DNA of 44,191 nucleotides from an uncultured archaeon (GTDB lineage Archaea; Aenigmatarchaeota; Aenigmatarchaeia; CG10238-14; SCSR01): the NCBI GenBank assembly GCA_964514495.1, contig CAZERL010000001.1, positions 1 through 44,191 of the forward strand. The letters are read 5' to 3'. Positions 1,735 to 37,856 of the stretch are shown here, piece by piece (within the stretch, counting starts at the first letter, position 1; every line of letters starts with the position of its first letter). The position numbers and the translations under genes were made by a program. The notes under the pieces were generated by a model. The model was not told the DNA's origin, did no database searches, and was given only the letters and a program-made list of their open reading frames with translations.

Positions 1735-1742
1735 AACATCAC

Positions 1743-2726: not shown

Positions 2727-2776
2727 TAGAATAGTGTTCTATAAATGTTTAAGTCCGTATCGGTCATTATAACCTT

Positions 2777-4051: not shown

Positions 4052-4968
4052 TGAATTTTGACGGCAAGACCGCTATTGTAACCGGTGGTGCTGGATTTTT
4101 GGGTTCACACATCGTCGATAAATTACTAGACCTGGGCGTTAATGTCACTGTTGTTGATTTAGCAGCAAATGCAAAACGATTGTCGCATGTTGTTAACAAA
4201 ATCGAATTCGTAAATCTTGATATATCCAATGAAAAAAACTTAAAGAGCTTGAAGCCATCAGATTTTATTTTCCATCTTGCCGCTTACGCAGTCCCAAACC
4301 TATGCGAAAAAAATCCCGACATGGCCTTTAAGGCTAATGTGCTTGGCACATATAACATGCTTAAGTTTGCCTTGGAAACTTCAGCTAAGAAAATAATTTT
4401 CCCCTCATCGGCACTGTTATATGGAAAGCACCCAAAATATCTTCCAATAGACGAAAAACACCCTATAGAAATTGGTTCTGTATACAATTCAACAAAGAAA
4501 TTCGGCGAAGACATGTGCAACTATTTTCTCGAGAATCATAATTTACCTGTTGTCTATTTCAGATTGTTCAATTCATTCGGTCCTAGGCAGGATATCGATT
4601 ATTTCATACCAACAGTGATTGTGCAGGCATTGAAACAAAAAGAAATTGGAATTTGGAATGCAGAACCAACAAGAGATTTTACATTCGTGGCCGATACAGT
4701 CGATGCATTTATTAAAGCAGCAGAATCGAATTTTGTCGGGGGACCTATAAACATTGGTTCTGGCCGTGAGATAAAAGTTGGTGAAATAGCAAAGGTGATT
4801 GCTGAAAAACTTGATGCTAAGTTGGTAATGCTAAATAAAACTGTTTCAGGTTCAATGCGGCTTTCTTGCAATAATTTTTTAGGGAAAAAGACTATAGGAT
4901 GGGAACCGCACATAAAATTTGAAGACGGGCTTAACGAGACTATAGACTCGTTCATTAAGAATAAATAA
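4051..4968 (+). CDS. GalE-like NAD-dependent epimerase (extended SDR)
   Basis: MNFDGKTAIVTGGAGFLGSHIV, SSALLYG, YNSTK. I prefer the ATG at 4051, which shares its A with the upstream TAA (TAATG), over the ORF-track start at 4015. Confidence 0.85.
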   Translation: MNFDGKTAIVTGGAGFLGSHIVDKLLDLGVNVTVVDLAANAKRLSHVVNKIEFVNLDISNEKNLKSLKPSDFIFHLAAYAVPNLCEKNPDMAFKANVLGTYNMLKFALETSAKKIIFPSSALLYGKHPKYLPIDEKHPIEIGSVYNSTKKFGEDMCNYFLENHNLPVVYFRLFNSFGPRQDIDYFIPTVIVQALKQKEIGIWNAEPTRDFTFVADTVDAFIKAAESNFVGGPINIGSGREIKVGEIAKVIAEKLDAKLVMLNKTVSGSMRLSCNNFLGKKTIGWEPHIKFEDGLNETIDSFIKNK

Positions 4969-6094: not shown

Positions 6095-6283
6095 ATGGGT
6101 CTGTTCCGATCTTTGCGTGCAATCTACAGCAAGCTGATGATAATGAAAGAGATGATTGTCTTTCTGTGGAAGTCGAAAAACTGGTGGCTTATACCTTTTG
6201 TAATTTTGCTTTTTGCATTCGGAATTTTATTTATAGTTGGCCAGTCTACACCATTGGGACCACTAATATACGCGTTGTTTTGA
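6095..6283 (+). CDS. DUF5989 / SxtK-like small single-pass membrane protein
   Basis: 62 aa. ..FLWKSKNWW-LIPFVILLFAFGILFIVG-QSTPLGPLIYALF shows a basic patch, WW, one TM helix and a GPxIYxLF C-terminus, as I recall for this family. An internal start at MIMKEM is possible. Confidence 0.7.
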   Translation: MGLFRSLRAIYSKLMIMKEMIVFLWKSKNWWLIPFVILLFAFGILFIVGQSTPLGPLIYALF

Positions 6284-6284
6284 T

Positions 6285-7133
6285 ATGGACATAACAGAAA
6301 AAGTCAAGGACTTTTACAACAGAACACCCTTTCCGGATTTTGAGTTAAGCAGGTTCAATTCTAAAGGCGATTTGATAAATAGTGCATTCCCATTTGCGAA
6401 ATATTTAAACGAAAAGATACCGAAGGATGCTAGTGTGATTGACATAGGTTGCGGAACAGGACAACTAGTTTCCCTGCTTTCATTGGAAAGAAATAATGTT
6501 GTCGGAGTAGACATGTCAGACTCCTCATTGGCCAAGGCTAAAAAGCTGAAAGAGAGGTTTGACCTAAAGACGTTGAGGCTGTTTCAAGCCGACATATTTA
6601 ACATTGGCATAGACGAGCAGTTTGACTATGTGCTCTGTCTTGGAGTACTGCATCACACCAAGGATGCAAAAGAAGCTTTTAGGCAGATTCTGAAATTGGC
6701 CAAGCCAAACGGGTACGTTGTAATAGGTCTATACAACAAGTTCGGAAGGATTTCCCTCTATCTCAGGAAATTCTTGTTGCATACAATTTTTAGGGACAAT
6801 GAAACAGTGAAGAGGCTGTTTCTTAAAAAGCAGATAATGTCTTTTAATGACAAGGAAAGGTTCCGAGGATGGTACAACGACCAGTTCGAGCATGTGCACG
6901 AGTCGGGGCATACGGTATCAGAAGTTCTGGGATGGTTCAAGGAAAATAACATCGAATATATCAATTCAATACCTACACTGAGATTGGCTTACGACTTTGA
7001 TATTACTAGCCAAAATTTGTTCGACAAAGAGGAGATAAACCTCAACTCAAAGCACATCATAAACCAGTTGCGGTGGATTTTCAGCACTGCGAATGACGGA
7101 GGTTATTTCATAACTGTAGGTAGGAAGATATGA
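6285..7133 (+). CDS. Class I SAM-dependent methyltransferase
   Basis: 282 aa. SAM motif I VIDIGCGTGQL; FDYVLCLGVLHH; PNGYVVIGLYN. Starts 1 nt after the upstream stop. Confidence 0.85.
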   Translation: MDITEKVKDFYNRTPFPDFELSRFNSKGDLINSAFPFAKYLNEKIPKDASVIDIGCGTGQLVSLLSLERNNVVGVDMSDSSLAKAKKLKERFDLKTLRLFQADIFNIGIDEQFDYVLCLGVLHHTKDAKEAFRQILKLAKPNGYVVIGLYNKFGRISLYLRKFLLHTIFRDNETVKRLFLKKQIMSFNDKERFRGWYNDQFEHVHESGHTVSEVLGWFKENNIEYINSIPTLRLAYDFDITSQNLFDKEEINLNSKHIINQLRWIFSTANDGGYFITVGRKI

Positions 7134-8191
7134 TACTTGGCGAAAATGAAAAGTTGTCCAGTGAGCACAAAAGATCTAGGGCAGCTGATGGACAACCTAG
7201 CATGGCGAAAAGAATTGTTGTAATCTTGCTGATGTTACTTACATTTGAGATTACATTTAGAGTTCTGAATGTAGAGAATTTTCGTGACGAGGCTTTGATT
7301 GAAGATGATTATTTGGGTCATGTGGTCAAGCCGAATCTGGATATCATCATCCAAAATGCAGATGAAATGGAAGTGCATGTGAAAACCATAGGTTACAATG
7401 GGATAGGGCTGAGGGACGATAAGTTGGAAAATCCGTATATTATAGCAATAGGTGACTCACACACCTTCGGGTTGGCCGTCAACGAAAGCGACCTTTGGGT
7501 GAACATTCTCGAAAAGAAACTAAATAAGGAAGTTCTAAACATGGGGATTGGAAGCTACGGGCTTATACAGGAGGAAAGGATGGTGAAAAAATATGCGTTG
7601 CAGACAGAACCAAAAATAATATTGTGGCAGTTCTCGCCAAACGATTACCTAGAAAGCTACAGATTCGAGAACAGAAACCTTAATTTTACCTGGCATAATT
7701 TGAAGCAGTTCGCAATAAACAACATCGCTATAGCGAAATTTGTGTGGAGCAAGCTGGGAGCCATAAAGCATGATGCGGCTGTTGTAGAATACAATGAGCA
7801 CAATTTGAGTTTCGTGTTTGAGCCTTACTCCTTTTTAAATCAGGCTGATGTCAACGAAGAAATAAGGGTTGGAGAGAATTTGGGGAAGCAGGCGGTAACA
7901 AGGGCAAAAAAACTCGCTGACGCTAATGATGTAAAACTTATAATGATTTTGATTCCCAGTAAGGAGGAGATATATTTTGACCTTACAAACAATTATCAGA
8001 TGGACTCAATGAGAAATTTTTGCGTGGAATTGGAATTTGATTGTGTCGATATGACTGAAGAATTTTCTAAGCAGGCAAAGATGTATAGGCAGCTATATTT
8101 CAGAAAGGACGCACACCTGAACTCTTTGGGTAATAAATTGGTTGCGGATGAAATTTACAATTACTTGATAGAAAATTATTTTATCAATTAG
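7130..8191 (+). CDS. Membrane-anchored SGNH/GDSL-fold protein (putative glycan O-acetyl esterase or transferase)
   Basis: 353 aa. N-terminal TM helix RIVVILLMLLTFEITF. Block I IIAIGDSHTFG. C-terminal DAHLNSLGNKLVA (DxxH). ATGA overlap with the methyltransferase. Confidence 0.7.
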   Translation: MILGENEKLSSEHKRSRAADGQPSMAKRIVVILLMLLTFEITFRVLNVENFRDEALIEDDYLGHVVKPNLDIIIQNADEMEVHVKTIGYNGIGLRDDKLENPYIIAIGDSHTFGLAVNESDLWVNILEKKLNKEVLNMGIGSYGLIQEERMVKKYALQTEPKIILWQFSPNDYLESYRFENRNLNFTWHNLKQFAINNIAIAKFVWSKLGAIKHDAAVVEYNEHNLSFVFEPYSFLNQADVNEEIRVGENLGKQAVTRAKKLADANDVKLIMILIPSKEEIYFDLTNNYQMDSMRNFCVELEFDCVDMTEEFSKQAKMYRQLYFRKDAHLNSLGNKLVADEIYNYLIENYFIN

Positions 8192-12351: not shown

Positions 12352-12813
12352 ATGATACCGATGAAAATAGGAATAGCCTGCAGTCCAGGAGGGCATTTAA
12401 CAGAAGCTTTACAAATGTTACCGATTTTGAACAAACATAAAATTTTCTTTTACACAATTGACGTGGAACACACTAGAAAAAATCTAGGAAAATATAAACG
12501 ATACTTGATACAAAATCCCATTAGAAACCCATTAAAGTACATCTCAGTAATTATTTCTTCCCTTTCTATATTGCTTAAAGAAAAACCGAAGGTTATAATT
12601 TCATTCGGAGCAGGGCCAACAGTTCCTATCGCATTGCTAGGCAAACTTCTATTTGGAAGTAAACTAATTTATATCGAATGTTCTGCGCAAGTTTATGAAC
12701 CATCCCTTTCAGGTAAAATTCTCTATCCATTTTCTGATTTGTTTTTTGTCCAGTGGAGATATCTAAAAGAAAAATATGGAGATAAAGCAATCTATGGGGG
12801 TTTGTTAATATGA
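12352..12813 (+). CDS. Alg14-like membrane-anchor subunit of a split GT (Cps14F/PssD type)
   Basis: 153 aa. KIGIACSPGGHLTEAL ... KPKVIISFGAGPTVP ... LIYIECSAQVYEPSLSGKILYPFSDLFFVQW matches the Alg14/Cps14F pattern as I recall it. Confidence 0.85.
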   Translation: MIPMKIGIACSPGGHLTEALQMLPILNKHKIFFYTIDVEHTRKNLGKYKRYLIQNPIRNPLKYISVIISSLSILLKEKPKVIISFGAGPTVPIALLGKLLFGSKLIYIECSAQVYEPSLSGKILYPFSDLFFVQWRYLKEKYGDKAIYGGLLI

Positions 12814-13286
12814 TTCTAGTAGCTACAGGTACTCACCCACAGCAATTTAACAGGCTCATACAAGCAGTCGATAATCTTGTAGGAAACAATGCTATCAATG
12901 GAAAAGTTGTAATTCAAGTCGGTTATTCAACTTATATACCAAAGAATGCTAAGTGGTTCAGATTCACTGGATATCCGAATATGCTTAGGTTGATTAAAAA
13001 ATCGTTAATTGTAATTACACATGGTGGAATAGGATCCATTTTACTTTCAGTCAAACTGAACAAAAAAATAATAGTTGTGCCAAGGTTAAAGAAATTTAAC
13101 GAACATACAAACGATCATCAACTTGAAATTGTGAAAGAGTTAGCGAAACAAGGAAAAATCATTCCAGTTTACGATATATCAAAACTGTATACAGCAATAA
13201 AAAGCGCAAAATTGTTCAATCCTAATAAATTCGAAAAAAACAACTTAATCTTAGACATGACAAAAAAGTTTTTGAGTGGATTGTGA
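12810..13286 (+). CDS. Alg13-like catalytic subunit (GT28 C-terminal domain, Cps14G/PssE type)
   Basis: 158 aa. MILVATGTHPQQFNRLIQAVD ... VITHGGIGSIL ... VVPRLKKFNEHTNDHQLEI. ATGA overlap with the Alg14-like gene. Confidence 0.85.
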   Translation: MILVATGTHPQQFNRLIQAVDNLVGNNAINGKVVIQVGYSTYIPKNAKWFRFTGYPNMLRLIKKSLIVITHGGIGSILLSVKLNKKIIVVPRLKKFNEHTNDHQLEIVKELAKQGKIIPVYDISKLYTAIKSAKLFNPNKFEKNNLILDMTKKFLSGL

Positions 13287-13290
13287 GTAT

Positions 13291-14448
13291 ATGATTATGC
13301 GAGTGTTGCAGCTAGGTAAATACTATTATCCGCATATGGGGGGAATTGAAAACCAACTCTATGTCTTATCAACAGAATTAGCTAAACTAGGAAATGATGT
13401 TACAGTTGCTGTTAGTAACGACAAACCAAAATTTTCGAAAGAAATTATATCTGGCGTTAAAGTACTTAGGTATCCTTTAATTACCAAAATAAAAAACGCA
13501 CCCGTCTCTTCATTTCCAGCCTTTGATGCAAAACAATTTGACATAGTTCACGTTCATTTACCAAATCCTTTAGCATCAATTCACGCGCTTTTAAATTATA
13601 CCGGAAATTTAGTCGTAACCTACCACAGTGATATAATAAAAGAAGGAATTTTGCCTAAATTGGCAAACATTATTTATACGAAGACAGTTTTATCGCAACT
13701 ACTGAAAAGAGCTAAAGTAATCATAGCAACAAGCCCAAACTACGTCTCGGGTTCTAAAATTTTGCAGAAATTTAATCATAAAGTAAAAGTGGTTCCGTAT
13801 GGTATCGATTTGAATTTATTTAAATTGAATTCTGCTTCTTCAAAGAAATTGGAGCAATTAAAGAAAAATTATGTCGGTAAGAAAGTTCTTTTGTTTGTAG
13901 GTAGATTGGTTCCTTACAAAGGCTTGAAATATCTTATTCATGCAATGCGGGAGGTTGTCGAAAAATATAATGAAATTGTTTTATTGATTGTTGGTGATGG
14001 TGTATTGAAATCTGAGTTGGAAGATATTGTTAAAAAACTAAACTTAACTAATCATGTTAAATTTTTATCTGAAATTCATAACAAAGACTTAACCCCTTAC
14101 TATTACCTGTCTGATATTTTTATCCTGCCGTCTATTTACAAATCTGAAGCTTTTGGAATAGTCCAATTGGAGGCAATGGCATGTTCGAAGCCAATTATAT
14201 CAACAAATGTACTTGGTAGTGGTATAAGCTACGTTAATAAAAACAACGAAACCGGTATTATAGTAGAGTCATACGATTCTGGAAAATTGTCATCAGCCAT
14301 GGTAAAACTTTTAAAAAACAATTCACTGAGGAAGAAACTTGGAAATAATGGTAAGCACAGAGTCAATACGCTTTTTTCAAAAGAAACAATGGTAAAAAAC
14401 ATCTTAAATATTTACAATCTCATTTTAAAGCATCCTTCGGAATCTTAA
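13291..14448 (+). CDS. GT4 (group 1) glycosyltransferase
   Basis: MIMRVLQLGKYYYPHMGGIE and PSIYKSEAFGIVQLEAMACSKPII (E-x7-E). I prefer the ATG at 13291 over the GTG at 13276, which overlaps the previous gene. Confidence 0.85.
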   Translation: MIMRVLQLGKYYYPHMGGIENQLYVLSTELAKLGNDVTVAVSNDKPKFSKEIISGVKVLRYPLITKIKNAPVSSFPAFDAKQFDIVHVHLPNPLASIHALLNYTGNLVVTYHSDIIKEGILPKLANIIYTKTVLSQLLKRAKVIIATSPNYVSGSKILQKFNHKVKVVPYGIDLNLFKLNSASSKKLEQLKKNYVGKKVLLFVGRLVPYKGLKYLIHAMREVVEKYNEIVLLIVGDGVLKSELEDIVKKLNLTNHVKFLSEIHNKDLTPYYYLSDIFILPSIYKSEAFGIVQLEAMACSKPIISTNVLGSGISYVNKNNETGIIVESYDSGKLSSAMVKLLKNNSLRKKLGNNGKHRVNTLFSKETMVKNILNIYNLILKHPSES

Positions 14449-15982
14449 ACTTGGTACATACAATTTCTCTTGTAGCGCACACATAATTACACAAATCGAC
14501 TTTTTCTTCTTCACTGTAATCATTATTCTTTATTACAGAAAACCTGCTAAAACCCTTTATTTTCACGAAAGCTTCATTTTCATCTATATACTTCATAAAA
14601 TCATTTTGTTTTTCTTTAAAACCTTGTCTGTCTTCATCCACTACTATATATTTTATGCCAAATTTCCGCATCAGCACGTCATAACTTTCATTCAAGAACT
14701 CAATTACACAAGGTCTTAGAACTTGATGTTCGAAGTTACTATTTCTAGCAATTTCAAAAATAAATGGGGATGCAGTTCCCAAGCCTGTATTAATCAATAC
14801 ATTCCCACTATTATCTTCCAGAATATACTTGGCAACACCCTCAACTTCTGGGAAACCGTAGATTAAATTTGCGAATGAAACCACATACTGGATTAGTGCG
14901 AGTACAACAATTAGTGTTAGTAGTATATGAGTACTGATTAGTTTTTTTAAAACCTTATGTAAAATATAAGAGCCAGGTATTACGAATGCTGGCAGAAAAT
15001 TCAAAGTATATCTGACATCTTTATTGTGTACTATTGTCATGATAAGATAAACAACTAATATCCATGTGGCAAAAAATTTCCAATCACGCTCTTTATTTAG
15101 GAAATAGGCAAATGTAGCCAGCGCTATTAAAATTCCTATAGGTAAAAAGAATTGGTCTTTTACAAAAGCCGACAAATAATAAACCCATCCTTTAGGTTGC
15201 ATCCAAGTGGGATCAAGCGGATCCGCTTCCAAATTCGCACTTAGCGGCAATAGCAGTAAGTTAGCTTTCCATAGCAGCAGGTAGTATGGCATTAACAAAG
15301 CTGTTGAAATTACTAGAGAAAATAATGTATACCTGAGTAGTCTTCTTTCAAAAACTATAACATACAGAAGAATTGCTGGAAAAATTGTAATTGCCTGCCA
15401 CTTAGTTAAGGTGGTTAGTGTCATTAAAACCGATAGTATTAGAAAATTTCTAATTTCAGGCTTCCCGCCTTTAATTAGATAGAGCCACATCATGGTAAGC
15501 GTGAAGAAAAATGCAAACGACATTTCCTGCATGGCTAAAATCGACATGTTTATTATGATAGGCGCAGTCATTAGCAAAGAAGTCGCAATGAACGCAACTA
15601 TCCTACTTTTGAAAATTATATTTGTGAATGAGTAAACTGTAAGCAAAAGCGCTAATGATGTCAAGATAATGACTAGCCTGCTAACTTGCAACGATGCTCC
15701 AAATATATTGTATGCTATTGAAAATAAGAACTGTGGTAAGGGCGGATAGTGTAAAGATATTTTAGGATAATATACCAGATACGAATTTAGATAATTATAG
15801 ATTTTATCGTACGATAGCGTAGGGGTTTTTATCAAATCATTCAAAAGATCTTTAAGAACCAGTCCAACAAATGAGTGCGTTGATTCATCTACATGATGCG
15901 GATTGTTGATAGGCATCAATAATGCAAACGTATAAATTATTGCAAATGTCACTAGGGTTTTATCTATTTTAAATCTAATCAT
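14420..15982 (-). CDS. GT-C fold glycosyltransferase, PMT/ArnT-like (GT39/GT83-like)
   Basis: 520 aa with more than 10 predicted TM helices. First-loop acidic motif HHVDESTH, then LHYPPLPQFL (the hPPL block typical of PMT_2/ArnT proteins). Cys-containing soluble C-terminal domain. Confidence 0.75.
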   Translation of the reverse strand: MIRFKIDKTLVTFAIIYTFALLMPINNPHHVDESTHSFVGLVLKDLLNDLIKTPTLSYDKIYNYLNSYLVYYPKISLHYPPLPQFLFSIAYNIFGASLQVSRLVIILTSLALLLTVYSFTNIIFKSRIVAFIATSLLMTAPIIINMSILAMQEMSFAFFFTLTMMWLYLIKGGKPEIRNFLILSVLMTLTTLTKWQAITIFPAILLYVIVFERRLLRYTLFSLVISTALLMPYYLLLWKANLLLLPLSANLEADPLDPTWMQPKGWVYYLSAFVKDQFFLPIGILIALATFAYFLNKERDWKFFATWILVVYLIMTIVHNKDVRYTLNFLPAFVIPGSYILHKVLKKLISTHILLTLIVVLALIQYVVSFANLIYGFPEVEGVAKYILEDNSGNVLINTGLGTASPFIFEIARNSNFEHQVLRPCVIEFLNESYDVLMRKFGIKYIVVDEDRQGFKEKQNDFMKYIDENEAFVKIKGFSRFSVIKNNDYSEEEKVDLCNYVCATREIVCTKFKIPKDALK

Positions 15983-22987: not shown

Positions 22988-23051
22988 AATTTCACATATT
23001 TAAACTAACACTATTATTTTTAAATACTAGTTTTTAACTAGGTGCATAGAT

Positions 23052-23792
23052 ATTCAATTAAAAGGTAAAATAGCCGTTATAACCGGTGGTAGCAAAGGAC
23101 TTGGAAAAGAGCTAGCTAAATTTTTTTCCGCCGAAGGTAGCACAGTTGTCATCTGTTCAAGAAGCGCGAATGACCTGAAGAGTGTTTGCAATGAAATTGT
23201 TGGTGCTGGCGGGAAGTGCGAATATTTTGTAGTTGATGTAACCAATAAAAAACAAGTCGACAAGCTTATTGATAAAGTTCTCAGTTCACATGGCAGAGTT
23301 GATGTTTTAGTCAATAATGCTGGATATGCCACCAAGTGGAAGGGCATAGAGAAAAATACTGAAGGAGAATTCGAAACATGCTTTAGAACTAACGTATATT
23401 CAATTTTCTATTTCCTTAAAAAAATAGTTCCGATAATGCGAAGGCAGAATTCAGGCTCGATAATCAACATATCATCCATGGCTGGGAAAAGAGGGATTCC
23501 AAACTTGGCAGCATATTGCGCTAGTAAATTTGCAGTGGTGGGGCTCACCCAATCTGTTGCTAAAGAGCTTAAGGATACTGATGTCCTCTGTATAAGTGTA
23601 TGCCCAGGAGGAATGTCCACAGAAATGCGGTCAAAGATATTTGGATTGGAAGATGCCAAGAAGCAACAAAGCCCACAGTATGTCGCAAATGTAATTAAAG
23701 ATGTTTTGTTAGGTAAGATAAAAGTTCCTAATGGCGGCGATATAATCATAAGGCATGGCAAAATAATGGCTATTAATCCCGCGCCAGAATAA
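23052..23792 (+). CDS. Classical SDR oxidoreductase (FabG-like), with no canonical start codon; proposed ATT start
   Basis: The frame is open from 23031 to 23792. It reads ..IQLKGKIAVITGGSKGLG (TGxxxGxG), NNAG, and SSMAG..YCASK (S-Y-K triad). There is no in-frame ATG, GTG or TTG before 23436, which lies downstream of the Rossmann and NNAG motifs. GGTG at 23041-23044 sits 7 nt before the ATT at 23052. Confidence 0.6.
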   Translation: MQLKGKIAVITGGSKGLGKELAKFFSAEGSTVVICSRSANDLKSVCNEIVGAGGKCEYFVVDVTNKKQVDKLIDKVLSSHGRVDVLVNNAGYATKWKGIEKNTEGEFETCFRTNVYSIFYFLKKIVPIMRRQNSGSIINISSMAGKRGIPNLAAYCASKFAVVGLTQSVAKELKDTDVLCISVCPGGMSTEMRSKIFGLEDAKKQQSPQYVANVIKDVLLGKIKVPNGGDIIIRHGKIMAINPAPE

Positions 23793-23835
23793 ATCTTATT
23801 TCAATATTTTTATTGTATTGCAACCAGGGATAAAG

Positions 23836-25056
23836 ATGAAATGCAAAATATGCGATAATCAGAATCTCCAAAAATTTCTTTCGTTAGGTGAAACGCCCTT
23901 GGCTAACAATTTCTTGAGAGAAGGTGATTTGCCTAAATCAGAGAAAACATTCCCTTTAGATGTTTACTTTTGTCCAAATTGCAAATTAGTACAATTGGGT
24001 TATGTAGTGCCACCAGAAATGATGTTTACAAATTACTTTTATGTGTCTTCAACTTCGAACACTTTTCAGCTACATTTTTCCAAGATGGCGGAAGAACTTA
24101 CGAATATGCTGAAGTTAGATGGCAATTCACTCGCAGTTGACATAGGAAGCAATGATGGTGTGCTTCTTAAAGGATTTCAGAAGTTTGGGGTTCGCACTGT
24201 TGGTGTAGAGCCTGCCACAAACATCGCAGAAATTGCAAAAAAGGATGGCATTGATACTATTAAAGATTTTTTTAGCGATAATGCTACAGATCAAATACTA
24301 TCTTCCGAAGGATATGCAGATGTCATCACAGCCAATAATGTTTTTGCACACACCGGAGCAATAAAGCGAATAATATACAATGTTAAAAGACTTTTAAAGG
24401 ACGATGGAATCTTTGTAATAGAAGTGGCTTACCTTCTTGATATGCTTCAAAAGATGACATTTGACATAGTTTATCATGAGCACCTTTTCTACTATTCATT
24501 AACACCACTAGACTACCTTTTCAATCAGCAGGGCATGCAAATATTTGATGTACAAAGAATTCCTACCCATGGAGGCTCTTTGAGAGTTTTTATTAAGAAA
24601 TCAGAGTCATCCAAACCCATCAAAAAGTCGGTATCCGAAATCCTTGGAAAAGAAAAGGAGATGGGAATTCATGAACTGGAAACTTATGAAAATTTTACCA
24701 ATAGCGTGTATAAAGCAAAAGAACAACTGGCAAAACTAATAATGGATCTTAAAAATCAAGGAAAAACAATCGCCGGTTATGGTGCTCCCGCGAAATCAAC
24801 GACTTTATTGAATTTTTGCGGCTTAGGTGGAGATTTCATCGAGTATATAGTTGATGAGAATGACCTAAAGCAAGGATTGTATACACCAGGCACACACATC
24901 CCAATAGTACCTCCGAGCATGCTAGACAAAAAGAGACCGGACTATATTTTGATTCTTGCGTGGAATTTCGCCGAAGAAATCTTGAATAAGACAAAGAAAT
25001 ATAAAGCTGATGGCGTAAAATTTATAATCCCTCTTCCAGAACTAATGACAGTTTGA
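23836..25056 (+). CDS. NDP-hexose C-methyltransferase (TylC3-like: Zn ribbon + SAM MTase + C-methyltransferase C-terminal domain)
   Basis: MKCKICDNQ..CPNCKLVQL (four-Cys ribbon), VDIGSNDGVLL (SAM motif I), ANNVFAH, and the long C-terminal domain typical of this family. I prefer the ATG at 23836 over the TTG at 23818. Confidence 0.8.
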   Translation: MKCKICDNQNLQKFLSLGETPLANNFLREGDLPKSEKTFPLDVYFCPNCKLVQLGYVVPPEMMFTNYFYVSSTSNTFQLHFSKMAEELTNMLKLDGNSLAVDIGSNDGVLLKGFQKFGVRTVGVEPATNIAEIAKKDGIDTIKDFFSDNATDQILSSEGYADVITANNVFAHTGAIKRIIYNVKRLLKDDGIFVIEVAYLLDMLQKMTFDIVYHEHLFYYSLTPLDYLFNQQGMQIFDVQRIPTHGGSLRVFIKKSESSKPIKKSVSEILGKEKEMGIHELETYENFTNSVYKAKEQLAKLIMDLKNQGKTIAGYGAPAKSTTLLNFCGLGGDFIEYIVDENDLKQGLYTPGTHIPIVPPSMLDKKRPDYILILAWNFAEEILNKTKKYKADGVKFIIPLPELMTV

Positions 25057-25061
25057 TAATT

Positions 25062-26039
25062 ATGATGGTATCTATAGTAATGCCGACATTCAACCGCAAG
25101 GATATTTTGCTTAAATGTTTAAGGCACTTGGATATGCAAACCTTTCCCAAAAGAGGTTTCGAGATTATAATTTGCGATGATGGTTCAACTGATGGAACTA
25201 AATTGGCAGTTAAGAAATTCAAGAAATCATCCAAATTAAACATAAAATACATTTACAGCGAGCATGTAGGCTCGTCACCAGTAAGAAATTTCGGGATCAA
25301 AATTGCTACTGGCAAATACATTGCGCTTATCAACGATGACATGATTCCTGACAGGCATTGGTTGGAAGAACACATGAAAACTCATGAAAAGGAAAAGGGC
25401 GTTGCCGTTCACGGTTTTGTAGACTGGGATCCAGAAATTGAGATTAACGAATTTATGCGTTTCATTGCCCCGTTCGGCCCAGAATACGACTGCAGGATAA
25501 AAAATTGGAATAATGCAGGATACAAAAATTTCATGACATCGAACCTAACCTTAGAAAGGAGATGGTTGGAATTAGAAAAATTCAACGAGGATATAAAGTT
25601 CGCATCATGCGAAGATATTGACTTGGGGATCAGACTTGAGAAACATGGCCTAAGGGTCGTTTATAACCCTAAAGCAGCTGTTTACCACAGCCACATCTAT
25701 TACGAAACACCTTTTTACAGAAAAATGTTTATAGTAGGCAGAGATTTGAACAAGATGAACAAGAGATTTCCTGAGGCTTTCAAGCCTAGTCCATTAGAAC
25801 TAATGAAGCTTATTTTTAGCAGATTCTATTTCCTGTTCCTTTTCAACAAAAGATTTTATTGGAGGATGAAATGCGGGTTTTTTTATTACCTCGGATATTT
25901 TTCAGAGAGTTTCAACAAGGATATCTTTAGTAGGGCCATTTATGTGTCGATTAGGATGATTTACGAATTTCAAGAATCTTTGCAAAAATTTTTAGGTGTT
26001 GACACACCAGATATACTTCCTTTATTAAGAAGGCGCTGA
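25062..26039 (+). CDS. GT2 glycosyltransferase
   Basis: VSIVMPTFNRKDIL..EIIICDDGSTDGT..INDDMIP. The start could be the TTG at 25053 or an ATG at 25062 or 25065. Confidence 0.85.
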   Translation: MMVSIVMPTFNRKDILLKCLRHLDMQTFPKRGFEIIICDDGSTDGTKLAVKKFKKSSKLNIKYIYSEHVGSSPVRNFGIKIATGKYIALINDDMIPDRHWLEEHMKTHEKEKGVAVHGFVDWDPEIEINEFMRFIAPFGPEYDCRIKNWNNAGYKNFMTSNLTLERRWLELEKFNEDIKFASCEDIDLGIRLEKHGLRVVYNPKAAVYHSHIYYETPFYRKMFIVGRDLNKMNKRFPEAFKPSPLELMKLIFSRFYFLFLFNKRFYWRMKCGFFYYLGYFSESFNKDIFSRAIYVSIRMIYEFQESLQKFLGVDTPDILPLLRRR

Positions 26040-26044
26040 TAGAG

Positions 26045-26716
26045 ATGCTGAATGCCGCGGTGAGATACCATCCTATAGTGCGATTCATTAAAAAGAAGAA
26101 ACCTGAAACTATTTGCGAGATAGGCAGTGGGTCGAACGGCTTAGGAGAATTTCTGAATGTAAAATTTGTTGGCTGCGACATAGAATTTCCCGCTCGAATA
26201 AACAAAAACATGGTTCCGGTAAAAGCCGATGCTAGAAGATTGCCATTCCCTGCCAACTCATTTGACCTAGTTTTCTCTCTGGATACCATAGAGCATATTC
26301 CTGCCAAAGACCGCAAAAAAGTTTTGGAAGAGATGTTTAGAATTTCAAAAAAATATGTTATTTTAGGTTTCCCTTGCGATGATGTTGCAAGAGATATTGA
26401 TGCAGAAGTAAACAAATTCTATGACATCTTAGGTCTTAAAAAGCCTGCATGGATAGATGAGCATTTGACAAATGTATATCCGACATCAAAAGATATGTAT
26501 GCCCTATTGAAGAAATTCAAATGCTCGTACAAGGTCATGGCAAATGGCAATTTACTGTTTCATAAACTAGTTATTCTTGTAGAATCCTTGCCGTTAATTT
26601 TCTTGATAACCAATATATTTGGTAAATTATTTATTAGATTGCCAGAGACTATGATTAACCTTTTTAACAGGGGGCAAGCATACAGGAAAATATTTTACAT
26701 TGAAAAAGCCAGTTAG
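26045..26716 (+). CDS. Class I SAM-dependent methyltransferase (Methyltransf_11-like)
   Basis: 223 aa. ICEIGSGSNGLG, ADARRLPFPANSFDLVFSLDTIEHI. Confidence 0.75.
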   Translation: MLNAAVRYHPIVRFIKKKKPETICEIGSGSNGLGEFLNVKFVGCDIEFPARINKNMVPVKADARRLPFPANSFDLVFSLDTIEHIPAKDRKKVLEEMFRISKKYVILGFPCDDVARDIDAEVNKFYDILGLKKPAWIDEHLTNVYPTSKDMYALLKKFKCSYKVMANGNLLFHKLVILVESLPLIFLITNIFGKLFIRLPETMINLFNRGQAYRKIFYIEKAS

Positions 26717-26773: not shown

Positions 26774-26883
26774 ATGAAGTTTATTGACTCTTTGAAAGGC
26801 ATTTTAAGCATAATAAAAGAATTATTGAGCCTCCTATGGAGGAAGAAACTTTGGTGGGACCATTTATTTATGCTTTGTTTTAG
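26774..26883 (+). pseudogene. Decayed DUF5989/SxtK-like gene: N- and C-terminal motifs in different frames, TM core deleted
   Basis: AAGGTGA Shine-Dalgarno, then ATG at 26774. The reading gives MKFIDSLKGILSIIKELLSLLWRKKLWW (frame 1). The family C-terminus GPFIYALF-stop appears at 26857-26883 in another frame. The roughly 22-codon hydrophobic segment present in the intact paralog at 6095-6283 is missing. Confidence 0.55.
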
Positions 26884-26907: not shown

Positions 26908-27132
26908 TTGAAAGGTATATGGAAAAAATGGCTGTTTGTATCCGAAAAGATCGGAAACTTCATGTCCAGAGTAATTCTCACCTTGCTTTATTTTACAATT
27001 TTCGCGATTCCAGGCATCGCTTCTAGACTCTTCACAGATAAGCTGCAGATCAAGAAAAGAAAAACTTCATACTGGGTTGACATCAAAGATAAAGTACCCA
27101 AGGATATAGAAGAAAGCAGAAATCAAGGCTGA
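26908..27132 (+). CDS. SxtJ-like (short form) small membrane protein, partner of the carbamoyltransferase
   Basis: 74 aa from a TTG start. KKWLFVSEKIGNFMSRVILTLLYFTIFAIPGIASRLFTDKLQIKKRKTSYWVD resembles, from memory, the C-terminal half of SxtJ-family proteins (..SPIVLGLLFF..P.GLLMRL.GKDPL.L......SYW..). Confidence 0.6.
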   Translation: MKGIWKKWLFVSEKIGNFMSRVILTLLYFTIFAIPGIASRLFTDKLQIKKRKTSYWVDIKDKVPKDIEESRNQG

Positions 27133-27161
27133 ACAGCCGATAAAATTCAAAATGTGTCAAT

Positions 27162-28889
27162 ATGGTGGCAATATTAGGTATTTCATGTTACTATCATGAT
27201 GCTACCGCATCAATAATAAAGGATGGTAAAATTTTAGCAGCTGCTGCCGAGGAAAGATTCAGCAGAAAAAAGCACGATTTCGGATTTCCTCAAGCTGCAA
27301 TAAATCTTTGCTTAAGAAAAGCTGGTGTTGGTAGCAATGGCTTGGATTATGTCGTATTTCACGAAAAACCCTTCGTTAGATTCGAGAGGCTGCTAAGGAC
27401 TATACTAGAGACATACCCGAAATCATCGACAGTTTTTAGAGAGTCTATGCTGAGCTGGATGAAGGATAAGCTTTGGATTAAAAATACAATAGCACAGAAA
27501 CTTGGGTTAAAAGATGATAAAAAAATATTGTTTAGCGATCACCATCTTTCCCACGCTGCCAGCGCGTTTTTCTGCTCACCATTCAAAGAATCCGCAATAA
27601 TTACGGCCGATGCAGTAGGCGAGTGGACAACAGCAACCATCGGGTCTGGGAAAGATAACAAAATAACTTTGTTGAAAGAACTGAGATTCCCCCATTCTTT
27701 CGGGCTTTTGTACAGTGCTGTAACAGCCTTTCTTGGATTTGAGGTAAATGAGGGGGAATATAAGGTAATGGGTTTGGCGCCATTCGGCAACCCAAAGTAT
27801 AAAGATAAGATATACAAGTTAATCAACCTCTGTGGCGATGGAAGCTTTTCTCTGAATATGAAATATTTCATGTACCACCGGTCTGTTGACAAGATGTTCA
27901 GCAAGGAGTTTGAAAAATTGTTCGGCAAGCCTTGCCCACCAGAAGATAGAGATAAAGTGATTCCATATTATGCGGATATCGCAGCCAGCATACAAGAAGT
28001 TTTGGAAGAGTTGTTGATAAAAACTGCCAATTATGCATATGAACTGACTAAAATGAAAAATCTATGTTTTGCCGGTGGGGTTGCGCTAAATAGCAAAGCA
28101 AACTATAGGATACTCAATGAAACGCCATTCGAGGATATGTTTATACAACCTGCTGCAGGTGATGATGGTGGTTCTTTGGGGGCGGCCTTGTTTGCATATT
28201 ATTCTTTGTTGAATAACGAAAGGAATCCCTATCAACTCGTTTTAAAGAGCGCATATTTCGGCGAAGAATATACTGAGGAAGAAATTAAAAATTTCCTTGA
28301 AAGCAACAAAATAAAATACCAATATTTCGAAGATGAGGACGAATTTTTAAGCGAAGTAGTAAATCATTTGCTAAACCAAAAAGTTATAGGCTGGTTCCAA
28401 GGCAGGTTCGAATGGGGACCAAGGGCATTGGGCAACAGAAGTATCATAGCCGATCCCAGAAATCCTGAAATGAAGGACACAGTTAACAATAAAATTAAAT
28501 TCAGAGAGCCTTTCAGACCCTTTGCACCATCTGTACTTGCCGAAAGGGCGCATGAGTTCTTTGAATTGCCAGAAGTAAGAGACTTTTCTCCCATTAGATT
28601 CATGGTGTACGTCACGCCTGTAAAAAAAGACAAGCGGCATGTAATACCTGCAGTCACGCATATTGACGGTACTGGAAGGTTGCAGACTGTTTCAAAGGAA
28701 GACAACCCAAGATACTATAAGCTGATAGAAAAATTCGAAAATAAGACAAAAGTGCCAGTGATATTGAATACCAGTTTCAATCTAAAAGGGGAGCCTATTG
28801 TCAATAGCCCTGAGGAAGCATATAGTTCATTCATGAGAAGTGGCATGGATTTTCTAGTCTTAGAAAAATTTATTGTTGCTAAAACTTAA
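27162..28889 (+). CDS. NodU/CmcH/SxtI-family O-carbamoyltransferase
   Basis: 575 aa. ILGISCYYHDATASIIKDGKILAAAAEERFSRKKHD..FP is the canonical N-terminus. A C-terminal YrdC/Kae1-like region contains PSVL..FF. Confidence 0.9.
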   Translation: MVAILGISCYYHDATASIIKDGKILAAAAEERFSRKKHDFGFPQAAINLCLRKAGVGSNGLDYVVFHEKPFVRFERLLRTILETYPKSSTVFRESMLSWMKDKLWIKNTIAQKLGLKDDKKILFSDHHLSHAASAFFCSPFKESAIITADAVGEWTTATIGSGKDNKITLLKELRFPHSFGLLYSAVTAFLGFEVNEGEYKVMGLAPFGNPKYKDKIYKLINLCGDGSFSLNMKYFMYHRSVDKMFSKEFEKLFGKPCPPEDRDKVIPYYADIAASIQEVLEELLIKTANYAYELTKMKNLCFAGGVALNSKANYRILNETPFEDMFIQPAAGDDGGSLGAALFAYYSLLNNERNPYQLVLKSAYFGEEYTEEEIKNFLESNKIKYQYFEDEDEFLSEVVNHLLNQKVIGWFQGRFEWGPRALGNRSIIADPRNPEMKDTVNNKIKFREPFRPFAPSVLAERAHEFFELPEVRDFSPIRFMVYVTPVKKDKRHVIPAVTHIDGTGRLQTVSKEDNPRYYKLIEKFENKTKVPVILNTSFNLKGEPIVNSPEEAYSSFMRSGMDFLVLEKFIVAKT

Positions 28890-30667: not shown

Positions 30668-32209
30668 TTGAAAGTATTGTTGTTGAACCCACCTAACCAA
30701 TTCAAAATAAGCAAGACAAGCAGATGGCCCGAATGGACGAAAAGCGGGACTTTATATTATCCATTTTGGCTAGCTTATGCCACATCAGTTCTAATGGAAT
30801 CCAAACACAAACCACTGCTTTTGGATGCTATTGCAAAAAATCTAGACTTCCAGATGACTTTAGAAAAAATCCAGGATTTCAATCCTGATATGGTTGTTAT
30901 AGAATCCTCAACACCCAGTGTGCATAGAGATGCACAGTTTGCCGATGATGTGAAGAAGATATCTGATTCAAAAATAGTTTTCGCTGGTAGACATGTAACC
31001 GCTACAACCGAACAAACCCTGAAGATGTTCAAATCAATTGACATAGTTGCAAGAGGCGAGTATGATTACACTATTTTGGATATTGCAAATGAGCTCAACA
31101 ACGGGCAAAACCTCAAAGAAGTCGTTGGCATCTCATTTAGAAAAAACGGAAATATAATAAATACCCCGATAAGACAATTGACTCAGAATTTAGACGAAAT
31201 GCCGTTCGTATCAAAAGCATACAGGGAATTTTTGGATGTGAGAGATTACAGGTATGCATTAGCACAGCATCCCATGTTGCAGCTTTGGAGCAGTAGAGGA
31301 TGCCCAAATAGATGTACATATTGCGACTATCCTCAGGTGATGACGATGCATACATTCAGAATGAGAAGTGCAAAAAACGTCGTTGATGAAATGGAATACA
31401 TTCATAAAAACTTGCCAAATGTCAAAGAAATTTTCCTTGAAGATGACACATTTACAATTGATAGAAATCGTACGTTTGAAATTTGTAAAGAAATACAAGA
31501 GAGAAAATTAAAACTCATTTGGTCTTGTAATGTTAGAGCTAATCTTGATTATGATATTTTGAAGGCAATGAAGGAAGCTGGTTGTCGTATTTTGATTGTG
31601 GGATACGAAAGTGGCAATCAACAAGTTTTAAACAACATAAAGAAAGGCATTGCGTTAAAACAGGCAGAGGAATTCACCAAACACGCACAAAAACTCGGCT
31701 TAAGGATATTCGGTTGTTTCATGATAGGTTTACCAGGCGATACAAAAGGAAGCATAAATGATACATTGCAGTTTGCAAAAAAGATGCATCCTGATATGGT
31801 ATTTTTCCAACAGGGTGTACCGTTCCCAGGAACAGAATTCTACGAATGGGCTAAGTATATGGGGTATCTGAAGACAGAGGACTACAGCAAGTGGTTTGAC
31901 GAAACAGGTAGACTGGACTGTTTAGTGAATCAGCCAGGCTTGAGTGGAGAAGAGGTTAAAAAAATGAGAGAAAACCTTATGCTGCGATATTACTTGGATC
32001 CAAGGCACATATTCTATACCTTGAGAAGGAATCTCCATCCTTTCGAATTTGTAAGGGTTGTACATTATGCTAAAGATTACCTTGCCTTCCTTATGTTAAA
32101 GAAGCTTAAATCAATGCAAAAGAAAAGCGTGAAAGACGATACGCCTCTAATTCACCACAAGCATGAAGAGAAAGGACCATTTGAAGAAAGACTACTCCAA
32201 TCGACTTAA
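30668..32209 (+). CDS. B12-binding-domain radical SAM enzyme (class B)
   Basis: 513 aa from a TTG start. N-terminal MKVLLLNPP..DMVVIESSTPS..IVFAGRHVT (cobalamin-binding Rossmann-like domain), then SSRGCPNRCTYCDYP (CxxxCxxC). Confidence 0.85.
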   Translation: MKVLLLNPPNQFKISKTSRWPEWTKSGTLYYPFWLAYATSVLMESKHKPLLLDAIAKNLDFQMTLEKIQDFNPDMVVIESSTPSVHRDAQFADDVKKISDSKIVFAGRHVTATTEQTLKMFKSIDIVARGEYDYTILDIANELNNGQNLKEVVGISFRKNGNIINTPIRQLTQNLDEMPFVSKAYREFLDVRDYRYALAQHPMLQLWSSRGCPNRCTYCDYPQVMTMHTFRMRSAKNVVDEMEYIHKNLPNVKEIFLEDDTFTIDRNRTFEICKEIQERKLKLIWSCNVRANLDYDILKAMKEAGCRILIVGYESGNQQVLNNIKKGIALKQAEEFTKHAQKLGLRIFGCFMIGLPGDTKGSINDTLQFAKKMHPDMVFFQQGVPFPGTEFYEWAKYMGYLKTEDYSKWFDETGRLDCLVNQPGLSGEEVKKMRENLMLRYYLDPRHIFYTLRRNLHPFEFVRVVHYAKDYLAFLMLKKLKSMQKKSVKDDTPLIHHKHEEKGPFEERLLQST

Positions 32210-35562: not shown

Positions 35563-35636
35563 TCTAAATAGCTATTACTATAGATTTATTACCTTTACGT
35601 TTCGATTATCTGTTAAGAACTATAAATGGTTTGAAC

Positions 35637-37856
35637 ATGACATTAATCAAAAAAATATTCAACAATTGGCTTTTTCCATTAGCAATTCTTGCTTTAATAA
35701 TTTTCATAGGTGTATCTGTCCGTTTAACTACAATAAATGCACCTACAGTGCTAGATTATGATCCGTGGTGGTATTACAGACATGCGACAGAAATAATAAA
35801 CAACAACATGCAACCACCAAAATGGGATTTACTTAGTTACTATCCACCTGGAAGACCGTTTGAACCATTTTTAGGTTGGATTTATACCATGATTCTATTC
35901 TTCAAGATCGCTCAAATATTCGTTAGTGATATAGCGTTTGTAGTCATAGCCAAATGGTCACCATTAATAATGGTTGCTCTCGGTGGCATTTCAGCATTCT
36001 TTTTGGGAAAATTAATCACCAACAATATAGGCGGTTTATTTACAGCATTGTTTGCCATACTGCCGCCAACTTTTATCGGAGTCTCTATGGCGGGCTACTC
36101 AGATAACGATCCTGTTGTAGTGTTCTATACGTTCCTGTCAATGTTCTCTATAATGCTCGCAATGAAAAAGCGATCAGTGCCATTTTACGTCTTGGCGATA
36201 CTAACGAATTTAATTTTTGCATATAATTGGAATGGTGGCTGGTTTGTATCGCTTCTGTTTTTAATCTTTTTGCCAGCCTTAGTTATTTTTAGAATTGTCG
36301 AAGAAACTATTCACAACAGAAATCTGAAAGTAAATTTAAGCAATATACTATTTGAAATAAAGCATCTGGCCGTACCATTGCTGATTGTTATTGTCATCGC
36401 CAATTTAATCGGTGTAATAACCAACCTTGGTAATGTCTTCATATCTTTTCTGATAAGCCTGGGTTTCGTAAATCCTGGCCAAGGCCTATTAGTTAACATT
36501 TCAGTCGCGGAATTGCAGAGAATAAACGTTCTCACTACAGAAGGATTTCTTACTATTGCAAGTAGGATCGGAGTGACACCTACTTTATTAGCACTTATAG
36601 GGTTACCTTTATTGGTAATCTACAAACTATATAGAAGGATTAAAATAGAGTATCATGAAATTTTCCTGTTTCTCTGGCTTGCCGCCACTTTTTACATGAT
36701 ATTAAACGGCACCAGATTTTCTTTGCAATTCTCCTCGGCCGTTGCTGCCTCAGCTGGCTATTTGATAGCCCAATTTTCCAAATACAAAAGAACATCATTG
36801 GTGATACTTACCTCTATTTTAATTTATATGACATCCATCAACAACACATTTTTACTGCCCACATTTTTAGTAACTATGATAACAATTTTTTCATTGTTTA
36901 AACGGCATACAGAAACCCCAGACCTGCATCTGGCAACTTTATTCGGGGTTGTACTCATCTTATCACTCTTTTTCATTTCTGAGGCAATTCAAGTTGGCCA
37001 AGGCTCTACTGGCTTAGAAATAAGTGGAAATTGGCTAAACGGTTTGGAATGGCTCAAGCAAAATGCCGATAAAGATGCATTAATTGCAACTTGGTGGGAT
37101 CCTGGTCATATTATAGCTGGATATACTGGATTGAAAGTTCATGCGGATGGGGCGCATTGTGCTCCTGGCGAGTGCATACCCTACAACCATAACATAAGAA
37201 TCCAAGATATGGGCAGAACATTTTCGATAAGCAATGAAGAAGAAGCTGTGAAAATTTTAAAGAAATATATGCAACTGACGCCAGAACAGTGCAGCGAAGC
37301 TAAGAAGCAATTTGCAGATATAATGCCTCAAGATGCGTGCAAACCTGTCAGTGAGATGTATGTCATCGCCAGCAGCGATTTAATCGGCAAATATTATTGG
37401 CTAAATTATTTCGGTACAGGGGCTGGAAGAAATTTTATAGAATGCCGATTATCACAGGAGTTGACACAACAGCAGAACACCCCATCGTATGGCTGTGCTA
37501 CAGGCTCTCCCATGACAGTAACAATGGCTCAAAAGGATGATCAGGTATTTGCTGTAATAAATATGCCTTCTCTGGGTTTAAGAAATGCAATTAGCAGAGA
37601 TTTGATTTACTTTAATAATAATCAAGAAGTTAGAGTTCGAACGAATATAACAAATGCTATAGATGGGCTAATGCTTATAGAACCAGGATTCGGCATATCC
37701 ATTTTTATGGAACAAGCTGTTCGCGACTCCATTTACACAAACATGTATTTCTTTAATGGAAATGGTATATCTGAATTCAACATACCAAAACTTAATAAGT
37801 TCAAGCTGGTTTATAACAACCCAGAATTAAAGATATTCAAAGTTGACTTCTCATAA
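35637..37856 (+). CDS. aglB: Archaeal oligosaccharyltransferase AglB (STT3 family)
   Basis: About 739 aa. First-loop LDYDPWWYYRH (DxD), EL5 motif NISVAELQ (TIxE/SVSE type) and ATWWDPGH (WWDxG). 13-TM-like N-terminal domain plus a soluble C-terminal domain. A TTG at 35631 is an alternative start. Confidence 0.9.
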   Translation: MTLIKKIFNNWLFPLAILALIIFIGVSVRLTTINAPTVLDYDPWWYYRHATEIINNNMQPPKWDLLSYYPPGRPFEPFLGWIYTMILFFKIAQIFVSDIAFVVIAKWSPLIMVALGGISAFFLGKLITNNIGGLFTALFAILPPTFIGVSMAGYSDNDPVVVFYTFLSMFSIMLAMKKRSVPFYVLAILTNLIFAYNWNGGWFVSLLFLIFLPALVIFRIVEETIHNRNLKVNLSNILFEIKHLAVPLLIVIVIANLIGVITNLGNVFISFLISLGFVNPGQGLLVNISVAELQRINVLTTEGFLTIASRIGVTPTLLALIGLPLLVIYKLYRRIKIEYHEIFLFLWLAATFYMILNGTRFSLQFSSAVAASAGYLIAQFSKYKRTSLVILTSILIYMTSINNTFLLPTFLVTMITIFSLFKRHTETPDLHLATLFGVVLILSLFFISEAIQVGQGSTGLEISGNWLNGLEWLKQNADKDALIATWWDPGHIIAGYTGLKVHADGAHCAPGECIPYNHNIRIQDMGRTFSISNEEEAVKILKKYMQLTPEQCSEAKKQFADIMPQDACKPVSEMYVIASSDLIGKYYWLNYFGTGAGRNFIECRLSQELTQQQNTPSYGCATGSPMTVTMAQKDDQVFAVINMPSLGLRNAISRDLIYFNNNQEVRVRTNITNAIDGLMLIEPGFGISIFMEQAVRDSIYTNMYFFNGNGISEFNIPKLNKFKLVYNNPELKIFKVDFS

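Follow-up and report, generated by a model that had tools for sequence, protein, structure and literature searches.

The carbamoylation of Nod factors by NodU and NolO is the precedent for enzymes of the NodU/CmcH family acting on sugar hydroxyls of secreted glycans. Heptose O-carbamoylation in the lipopolysaccharide core of Pseudomonas adds a precedent on an envelope glycan (PMC8005017). Sugar O-carbamoylation by NodU-family enzymes is established for bacteria, and Pfam has families for both SxtJ and DUF5989. Class III carbamoyltransferases form carbamoyl-AMP from ATP and carbamoyl phosphate and then pass the carbamoyl to a hydroxyl (PMC9633730). In the cyanobacterial saxitoxin cluster sxtJ and sxtK adjoin sxtI, and both have homologues in the databases, none of them characterised (PMC2885083); a 2025 review still depicts SxtI, SxtJ and SxtK as a presumed complex (PMC12300590). 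SxtL, the GDSL-lipase of the same cluster, has been assigned decarbamoylation (PMC2679770). Here we describe a related module on an archaeal contig, CAZERL010000001.1 of assembly GCA_964514495.1, of which we analysed positions 1 to 44,191 on the forward strand (44,191 nt, the window). It consists of genes for a carbamoyltransferase (CT), a short SxtJ-like protein (J) and a DUF5989/SxtK protein (K), and represents, in an archaeon and in partly degraded form, a cassette that is known but uncharacterised. We lean, with modest confidence, towards its being a working O-carbamoylation module for a surface glycan.

Membership of class III was assigned by full-length matches above the gathering score to both Pfam families, PF02543 and PF16861. 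The CT matches Carbam_trans_N with E 2.3e-85 (287.5 bits, cut-off 24, profile positions 2-346 of 346) and Carbam_trans_C with E 9.8e-72 (240.5 bits, cut-off 27, positions 2-170 of 170), and aligns over its full length with the solved CTs 7xb6, NovN, GdmN and TobZ (E 2e-93 to 1e-70). Residue roles described for GdmN (PMC9633730) were transferred through the alignment; the general base and all four iron ligands are conserved (Table 1), and the YrdC-like half keeps the motifs GPRALGNRS, REPFRPFAP, THIDGTGRLQ and NTSFN. Because both domains are full length and the catalytic and metal residues are conserved, the CT is very probably catalytically competent. It is under purifying selection, with non-synonymous divergence (pN) of 0.09 against synonymous divergence (pS) of 0.6-0.88 in the CT and J comparisons, where synonymous sites are saturated or nearly so. 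A previous reading of this DNA, made from the letters alone (the sequence-only reading), had called the 575-aa protein a NodU/CmcH-family carbamoyltransferase, and the full-length domains and intact active site bear this out. On the NCBIfam NodU model (NF041651) the match is partial and its 148.8 bits stay below the equivalog cut-off of 1000, which places the CT in the same superfamily but not among NodU orthologues.

J is encoded 29 nt 5′ of the CT gene. The 74-aa protein has no Pfam match even at E<=10 and no NCBIfam match, and it falls outside the usual SxtJ build of ~130-160 aa with three hydrophobic helices. By hydropathy it has one hydrophobic segment (residues 19-37) as against the three helices of long SxtJ, and this helix lies between a W-x-x-W segment and a tail rich in charged residues. 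An exhaustive profile search recovered the J family in 437 representative clusters, falling into two length classes of ~75 aa and ~115-175 aa, and within the longer members the match is always C-terminal. The four long members checked, of the 27 from CT-J-K loci, are bona fide SxtJ and score 42.6-48 bits on Pfam SxtJ (PF19588, gathering score 24.4 bits), and a bacterial relative of the short form reaches 20.6 bits, just under the threshold, over profile positions 54-98 of 99. When 87 short sequences were compared with the 27 long ones, hhalign returned a probability of 99.4% (E 1.8e-21, 72 aligned columns) and placed residues 2-74 of the short form on 59-133 of a 133-aa SxtJ, so the likeness to the C-terminal part of SxtJ that had been noticed by eye is well founded.

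The short form is frequent: 87 of 148 representative clusters are <=85 aa, and short J accompanies one whole CT clade across many bacterial phyla. Close relatives of the window's protein are 66-78 aa long and 75-78% identical to it. Pairwise dN/dS is 0.07-0.17 among four relatives, and in divergent pairs pN is 0.14-0.18 against pS of 0.6-0.84. Given this purifying selection, the profile-profile homology and the frequency of the short class, the 74-aa open reading frame (ORF) is, as judged from sequence, a real, selected gene, and its product a natural short form of SxtJ rather than a stump. Pfam and NCBIfam both overlook this widespread form. It also occurs in a natural fusion, P0244 (266 aa), in which a HAD-type phosphatase (D,D-heptose bisphosphate phosphatase/PNK3P-like) carries a C-terminal short-SxtJ module; the predicted architecture shows that the J module would be able to anchor a soluble sugar-pathway enzyme at the membrane.

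The SxtK remnant that the sequence-only reading had placed before J is indeed there, and it is a DUF5989 pseudogene. By three-frame translation the 45-codon ORF at 26774 begins DUF5989-like (...ELLSLLWRKKLWW), and the N-terminal part ...LLWRKKLWW and the DUF5989 C-terminus GPFIYALF with its stop lie in different frames; the spliced remnant scores 13.2 bits on DUF5989 (PF19451), below the 27-bit level. The 97%-related locus L005 has another lesion, a frameshift after WWL and a premature stop, so the decay is biological and not an assembly error. Within the clade, L001/L091 and L093 have an intact K, L002/L006 and L092 have none, and the window and L005 have a pseudogene. The sole intact DUF5989 protein of the window, of 62 aa with one transmembrane segment (31-49), is encoded 20.7 kb 5′ of the CT gene and may substitute for the dead adjacent copy. 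A 62-aa partner of the CT had been proposed before; the intact protein exists, but its gene lies away from the CT gene.

The distribution of the trio, which the sequence-only reading had proposed to chart in archaeal genomes, was surveyed. Of the 80 loci at which a related CT turned up when one genome per species was scanned, six belong to archaea (Aenigmatarchaeota, two Woesearchaeota and three with the label ‘uncultured archaeon’) and the rest to ~20 bacterial phyla. J and K were detected with our own profiles on six-frame ORFs, and cassettes were counted wherever 1 kb or more flanks the CT gene on each side, as it does at 60 loci. J and/or K lies within 2.5 kb of the CT gene at 57 of these, and both are present at 41. 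The commoner orders are J-CT-K (24/60) and CT-J-K, the sxt order (13/60); the 27 J proteins from CT-J(-K) loci that entered the hhalign comparison are all of the long form, 129-194 aa. The window's own order, K-J-CT, is the rarest and is shared with L001, L005, L033 and L034. Gene order tracks CT clade in a neighbour-joining tree. Orders that contain a gene for an SGNH hydrolase-like protein are J-CT-SGNH-K (L085, L090, L041), SGNH-K-J-CT (L001, L091) and CT-J-K-SGNH (L048), the last being the sxtI-J-K-L order. A CT with an SxtJ-like protein and DUF5989, often with SGNH, is therefore a widespread cassette. The claimed sxtI-J-K-type association holds for the recurrence of the three genes, but in the window the order is K-J-CT and the adjacent K is dead.

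The typical bacterial setting is a polysaccharide locus, with Wzz, Bac_transf, Wzy, glycosyltransferases, flippases, sulfotransferases and methyltransferases. Glycan settings also span three archaeal lineages: the window and L002 have an AglB island, L041 has a GT2 glycosyltransferase, a PMT_2 GT-C glycosyltransferase and three SGNH paralogues, and L036 has dTDP-rhamnose pathway genes and a GT2.

Several individual loci deserve mention. In L089 (3774..14837), a bacterial Wzy-type locus, the order is K-GDSL-Wzy-J-CT; after these come genes for WecG, two sulfotransferases and another carbamoyltransferase, distinct from the first (588 aa, HypF_C_2 match). The product of the locus is a candidate for a doubly carbamoylated and sulfated polysaccharide. 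Directly 5′ of the intact K-J-CT of L093 lies an ORF (572..997) that looks by eye like an IS200/IS605-type transposase; if it is one, the cassette may be mobile. A 23S_rRNA_IVP-family gene (116 aa) stands between the CT and DUF5989 genes in L003 (7849..8199) and L004 (7155..7505). An apparent CT-DUF5989 fusion in L076 was rejected, as it arose from a long frame that GC-rich DNA leaves free of stops.

The window also encodes an SGNH/AlgX-like protein with an N-terminal signal-anchor (25-43) and the motifs GDSHTFG and DAHLN. It shares 31-32% identity with the SGNH proteins of L001, where the gene adjoins K-J-CT, and of L085, where the gene stands between those for CT and K, and homologues of it adjoin the cassette in 24 other loci. 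Its gene ends a run (6095..8191) that starts with the intact K and continues with a methyltransferase, and this run appears to be the remaining half of the cassette, 20 kb away from the CT gene. The methyltransferase has no homology to its positional counterpart in L001, a Methyltransf_21 protein. In both the window and L089 the intact K stands directly 5′ of SGNH (here across the methyltransferase gene) instead of beside the CT gene.

On its 3′ side the CT gene converges on a gene for a PMT_2-type GT-C glycosyltransferase. The 3′ ends overlap by 11 nt, as the sequence-only reading had stated, and the identical 11-nt overlap is found in the Aenigmatarchaeota locus L002. Orthologues of this GT-C adjoin the CT gene in L001, L002/L006 and L005, and a homologue does so in the Woesearchaeota locus L041; a jackhmmer search with the window's GT-C found no such partner within ~4 kb of the bacterial CTs. 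Among the loci compared, a PMT_2 GT-C beside a CT turned up in archaeal ones only, in two separate CT clades.

If the module works on a surface glycan, its parts could be ordered as follows. By the chemistry of the family, the YrdC-like domain of the CT would form carbamoyl-AMP from ATP and carbamoyl phosphate, and the Kae1-like domain would move the carbamoyl to a hydroxyl, with His12 as general base and H127/H131/D150/D334 as iron site. The reaction would take place in the cytoplasm, most likely on a dolichyl phosphate-linked sugar or a lipid-linked oligosaccharide, and modification at the cytoplasmic face would precede flipping. The flipped, carbamoylated product would then be transferred by the adjacent PMT_2-type GT-C or by AglB, so that the target may be either the AglB N-glycan or a GT-C-dependent glycan. 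Short SxtJ (and K) would keep the soluble CT at the membrane, and the SGNH protein, presumably outward-facing, might remove or process the carbamoyl group or perform an unrelated O-acylation.

One alternative is that the substrate of the CT is soluble, be it a precursor in the form of a nucleotide-activated sugar or a small molecule that is not a glycan, and that the small membrane proteins serve, for example, export or regulation and are no tether. Its characterised relatives TobZ, NovN, GdmN and SxtI all use soluble small molecules (PMC9633730; PMC2679770), some cassettes have no glycan genes around them, and many enzymes of the island tailor nucleotide sugars (C-methyltransferase, aminotransferase, epimerases). 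We nevertheless consider it unlikely, since hardly any CT gene comes without one or two genes for tiny membrane proteins, and many have one for a membrane-anchored SGNH protein as well, which would be odd for a purely soluble pathway; moreover, no secondary-metabolite genes are found in the window, and in two archaeal clades the CT is paired with a GT-C of the type that uses dolichyl phosphate (Dol-P) sugars. Very unlikely, in our view, is a two-sided system in which the carbamoyl is added inside and then removed or passed on outside by the SGNH/AlgX-like protein, with J and K as the membrane link and a carbamoyl that is transient or relayed, much as formyl is in the Arn pathway or acetyl in O-acetylation by MBOAT/SGNH. 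Signal-anchored SGNH homologues do recur beside CT, J and K, SxtL has its assigned decarbamoylation (PMC2679770), and the place of the intact DUF5989 gene just 5′ of SGNH, in the window and L089, would fit; but only 24 other fetched loci have an SGNH homologue nearby, one enzyme completes the CT chemistry (PMC9633730), and J (1-3 transmembrane segments) and K (one) are very small for a conduit. That the whole module is decaying and non-functional, the dead DUF5989 being the first sign and the 74-aa ORF a stump of a longer sxtJ, would suit the loss of K in the window and its relatives and the coverage by J of the C-terminal part of long SxtJ alone. This we take to be extremely improbable against the strong purifying selection on CT (pN 0.09) and J (pN 0.14-0.18) relative to pS of 0.6-0.88, the finding that short J is usual and goes with a whole CT clade in many bacterial phyla, the intact catalytic residues, and the intact DUF5989 paralogue in the same island.

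Several points weigh against the reading as a working glycan module. An O-carbamoylated glycan is here a prediction from gene context. DPANN archaea are metabolically reduced, which bears on the source of carbamoyl phosphate. The adjacent K is dead or absent in the window, L005, L002/L006 and L092, so that the module either can do without K or has partly decayed. There is no sign of a physical complex of CT, J and K, and no J or K domain is fused to the CT among its 120 closest homologues; the AlphaFold2 monomer of J, from a four-sequence alignment, is one long helix whose pLDDT of 68 makes it uninformative on topology. The 74-aa ORF fails the SxtJ-family profile models of Pfam and NCBIfam, the outcome that the sequence-only reading had said would speak against it, and its homology appears at the profile-profile level only. 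One archaeon (L087) and a few bacteria, such as L003 and L004, have cassettes without obvious glycan neighbours. The tree of the CTs is a neighbour-joining tree that carries no support values.

Table 1. Features of the window and conserved residues of its carbamoyltransferase
Feature	Position	Strand	Evidence and remarks
Intact 62-aa DUF5989/SxtK paralogue	6095..6283	+	Pfam E 4.9e-14, 52.6 bits, profile 3-49/49; own K profile E 3.8e-21
S-adenosylmethionine (SAM) methyltransferase	6285..7133	+	Pfam Methyltransf_31/11/12; between intact K and SGNH genes
Membrane-anchored SGNH/AlgX-like protein, 353 aa	7130..8191	+	Pfam ALGX 30.1 bits (cut-off 26.5), Lipase_GDSL_2
SDR	23031..23792	+	Stop-free alignment over 240 aa with 244-aa L002 orthologue
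Sugar C-methyltransferase	23818..25056	+	Pfam Methyltransf_14 E 2.7e-62, Methyltransf_13 E 1.5e-23; same block as CT
GT2 glycosyltransferase	25053..26039	+	Pfam Glycos_transf_2 E 2.6e-28; syntenic in L002
SAM methyltransferase	26045..26716	+	Pfam Methyltransf_11/25; directly 5′ of CT module
DUF5989/SxtK pseudogene	26774..26883	+	70-nt internal deletion relative to intact 59-aa L001 gene; transmembrane helix lost, frame shifted
Short SxtJ, 74-aa single-helix membrane protein	26908..27132	+	TTG start; last helix and charged tail only
Class III (TobZ/NodU/GdmN-type) O-carbamoyltransferase, 575 aa	27162..28889	+	Pfam, structure alignments, active-site residues
CT general base			H12 = GdmN H27
CT iron ligand			H127 = GdmN H133
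CT iron ligand			H131 = GdmN H137
CT iron ligand			D150 = GdmN D156
CT iron ligand			D334 = GdmN D333
PMT_2-type GT-C glycosyltransferase, 534 aa	28879..30483	-	Pfam PMT_2 E 4e-16, 60.1 bits; convergent with CT
AglB/STT3 oligosaccharyltransferase	35631..37856	+	Pfam STT3 E 3.7e-27, 96.3 bits; WWDPG at residue 488; defines island

The contig of the CT also encodes RadA, the ribosomal proteins S3Ae and S15, DUF2240 and a RIO kinase. RadA, S3Ae, S15, DUF2240 and AglB on one contig mark the host as archaeal, and with these archaeal genes on the contig the link between the CT and an archaeon is no binning artefact. The archaeal aglB island named in the sequence-only reading, and its co-directional block with a GT2 and a SAM methyltransferase, were likewise recovered. 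The block 5′ of the module runs on the + strand through SDR, C-methyltransferase, GT2 and SAM methyltransferase genes, and an orthologue of the last also lies 5′ of J-CT in L002 and L092, both of which are without K. The nearest named relative of the CT (84% identity) is in an Aenigmatarchaeota metagenome-assembled genome, and synteny with it spans from a cupin gene to AglB and an archaeal histone gene.

The SDR gene was for a time suspected to be a pseudogene, which was dropped since 240 aa align intact. No ATG, GTG or TTG is present between the 5′ stop (23028) and the first aligned residue (TTA, 23058), and the options for its start are ATA or ATT only, so that either the start is non-canonical or the start codon has been lost.

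Three GT-C enzymes are encoded in the island: the partner of the CT, AglB and another PMT_2-type enzyme at 14420..15982(-). The two PMT_2-type proteins are mutually divergent; jackhmmer started from the second did not recover the first at E<=1e-5. Three such enzymes suggest more than one glycosylation step or pathway at the outer face. Directly after the GT-C that converges on the CT gene lies a gene for a B12-binding radical SAM enzyme (30668..32209), which keeps its position in L002 and has a counterpart near the CT in L086; it may add a further unusual sugar modification, for example a methylation. Split genes for an Alg14-like protein (153 aa) and an Alg13-like/GT28 C-terminal protein (158 aa) overlap by 4 nt at 12352..13286, and the pair is reminiscent of the two-part GlcNAc transferase of eukaryote type. 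The edge of the island (85..4968) holds an amino-deoxy-sugar pathway, with a WbqC-like protein, two genes of the GDP-mannose-dehydratase/epimerase type, a DegT aminotransferase and a further epimerase.

The window's CT is 59-62% identical to many bacterial CTs, and in the neighbour-joining tree the Aenigmatarchaeota and Woesearchaeota groups fall at different places within a bacterial clade that has J upstream. This would indicate, and is indicative only of, at least two transfers from bacteria to DPANN archaea; likewise the Aenigmatarchaeota lineage would appear to have received the cassette from a bacterial source and incorporated it in its AglB glycan island. The module has a GC content of 0.38-0.40 against ~0.36 for the island, no marked anomaly, and a very recent transfer is therefore unsupported.

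If the favoured reading is right, archaeal surface glycans bear O-carbamoyl groups, which as far as we could find is unreported for Archaea, and the DPANN source would be bacteria. In the limited literature searched we found no paper on carbamoylated archaeal glycans and none that names DUF5989, and the literature search found no precedent for carbamoylation of a Dol-P-sugar. Ever since the description of the sxt cluster, SxtJ and SxtK have figured as partners of SxtI, yet neither was ever characterised; the same proteins accompany CTs in ordinary polysaccharide loci. Since such cassettes are found in many phyla, the function of SxtJ and SxtK becomes open to genetics in cultivable bacteria. 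Useful by-products are the short form of SxtJ, the link to SGNH and the wide distribution of the cassette. The most far-reaching interpretation would be that CT, SxtJ-type protein, DUF5989 and anchored SGNH form one ancient mobile envelope-glycan system of bacteria and DPANN archaea, in which the small proteins are obligate membrane adaptors and SGNH processes the carbamoyl after export, that sxtIJKL of the saxitoxin pathway was recruited from this system, and that the window holds the first O-carbamoylated archaeal glycan; taken as a whole we hold this to be distinctly unlikely.

Among known glycosylation systems, sugar addition at the outer face by AglD/AglR/AglS-type proteins in Haloferax N-glycosylation is comparable: a GT2 together with a PMT-like GT-C in an Agl island suggests that a Dol-P-sugar is made inside and transferred outside. 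In the window the GT2, the tailoring enzymes and the convergent PMT_2 GT-C are similarly arranged; the likeness is one of arrangement. From NodU/NolO and the Pseudomonas core enzymes the window's CT differs in substrate, domain of life and cassette partners, and it is an orthologue of none of them. With TobZ, GdmN and NovN it has in common the Kae1-like and YrdC-like domains, the general-base His, the His2Asp2 iron site and the motifs GPRALGNRS, REPFRPFAP, THxDGTxRxQ and NTSFN. Those enzymes tailor antibiotics and have no known need for membrane partners. Tyr82 of GdmN is His67 in the window's CT, which at 575 aa also lacks the C-terminal dimerisation extension of GdmN (682 aa).

The closest parallel is sxtI-sxtJ-sxtK(-sxtL) of the cyanobacterial saxitoxin cluster, with which the window shares its gene content: an O-carbamoyltransferase, an SxtJ-type protein, a DUF5989/SxtK protein of ~55-60 aa and a GDSL/SGNH protein (PMC2679770). 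The SGNH protein of the window is of the same GDSL/SGNH class as SxtL, a class-level likeness that does not imply orthology. The two loci differ in order, the window having K(dead)-J-CT with SGNH and an intact K 20 kb off, and in J, which here is the 74-aa one-helix form below the Pfam SxtJ model. They differ also in context, the sxt genes belonging to an alkaloid pathway and those of the window to an archaeal glycan island.

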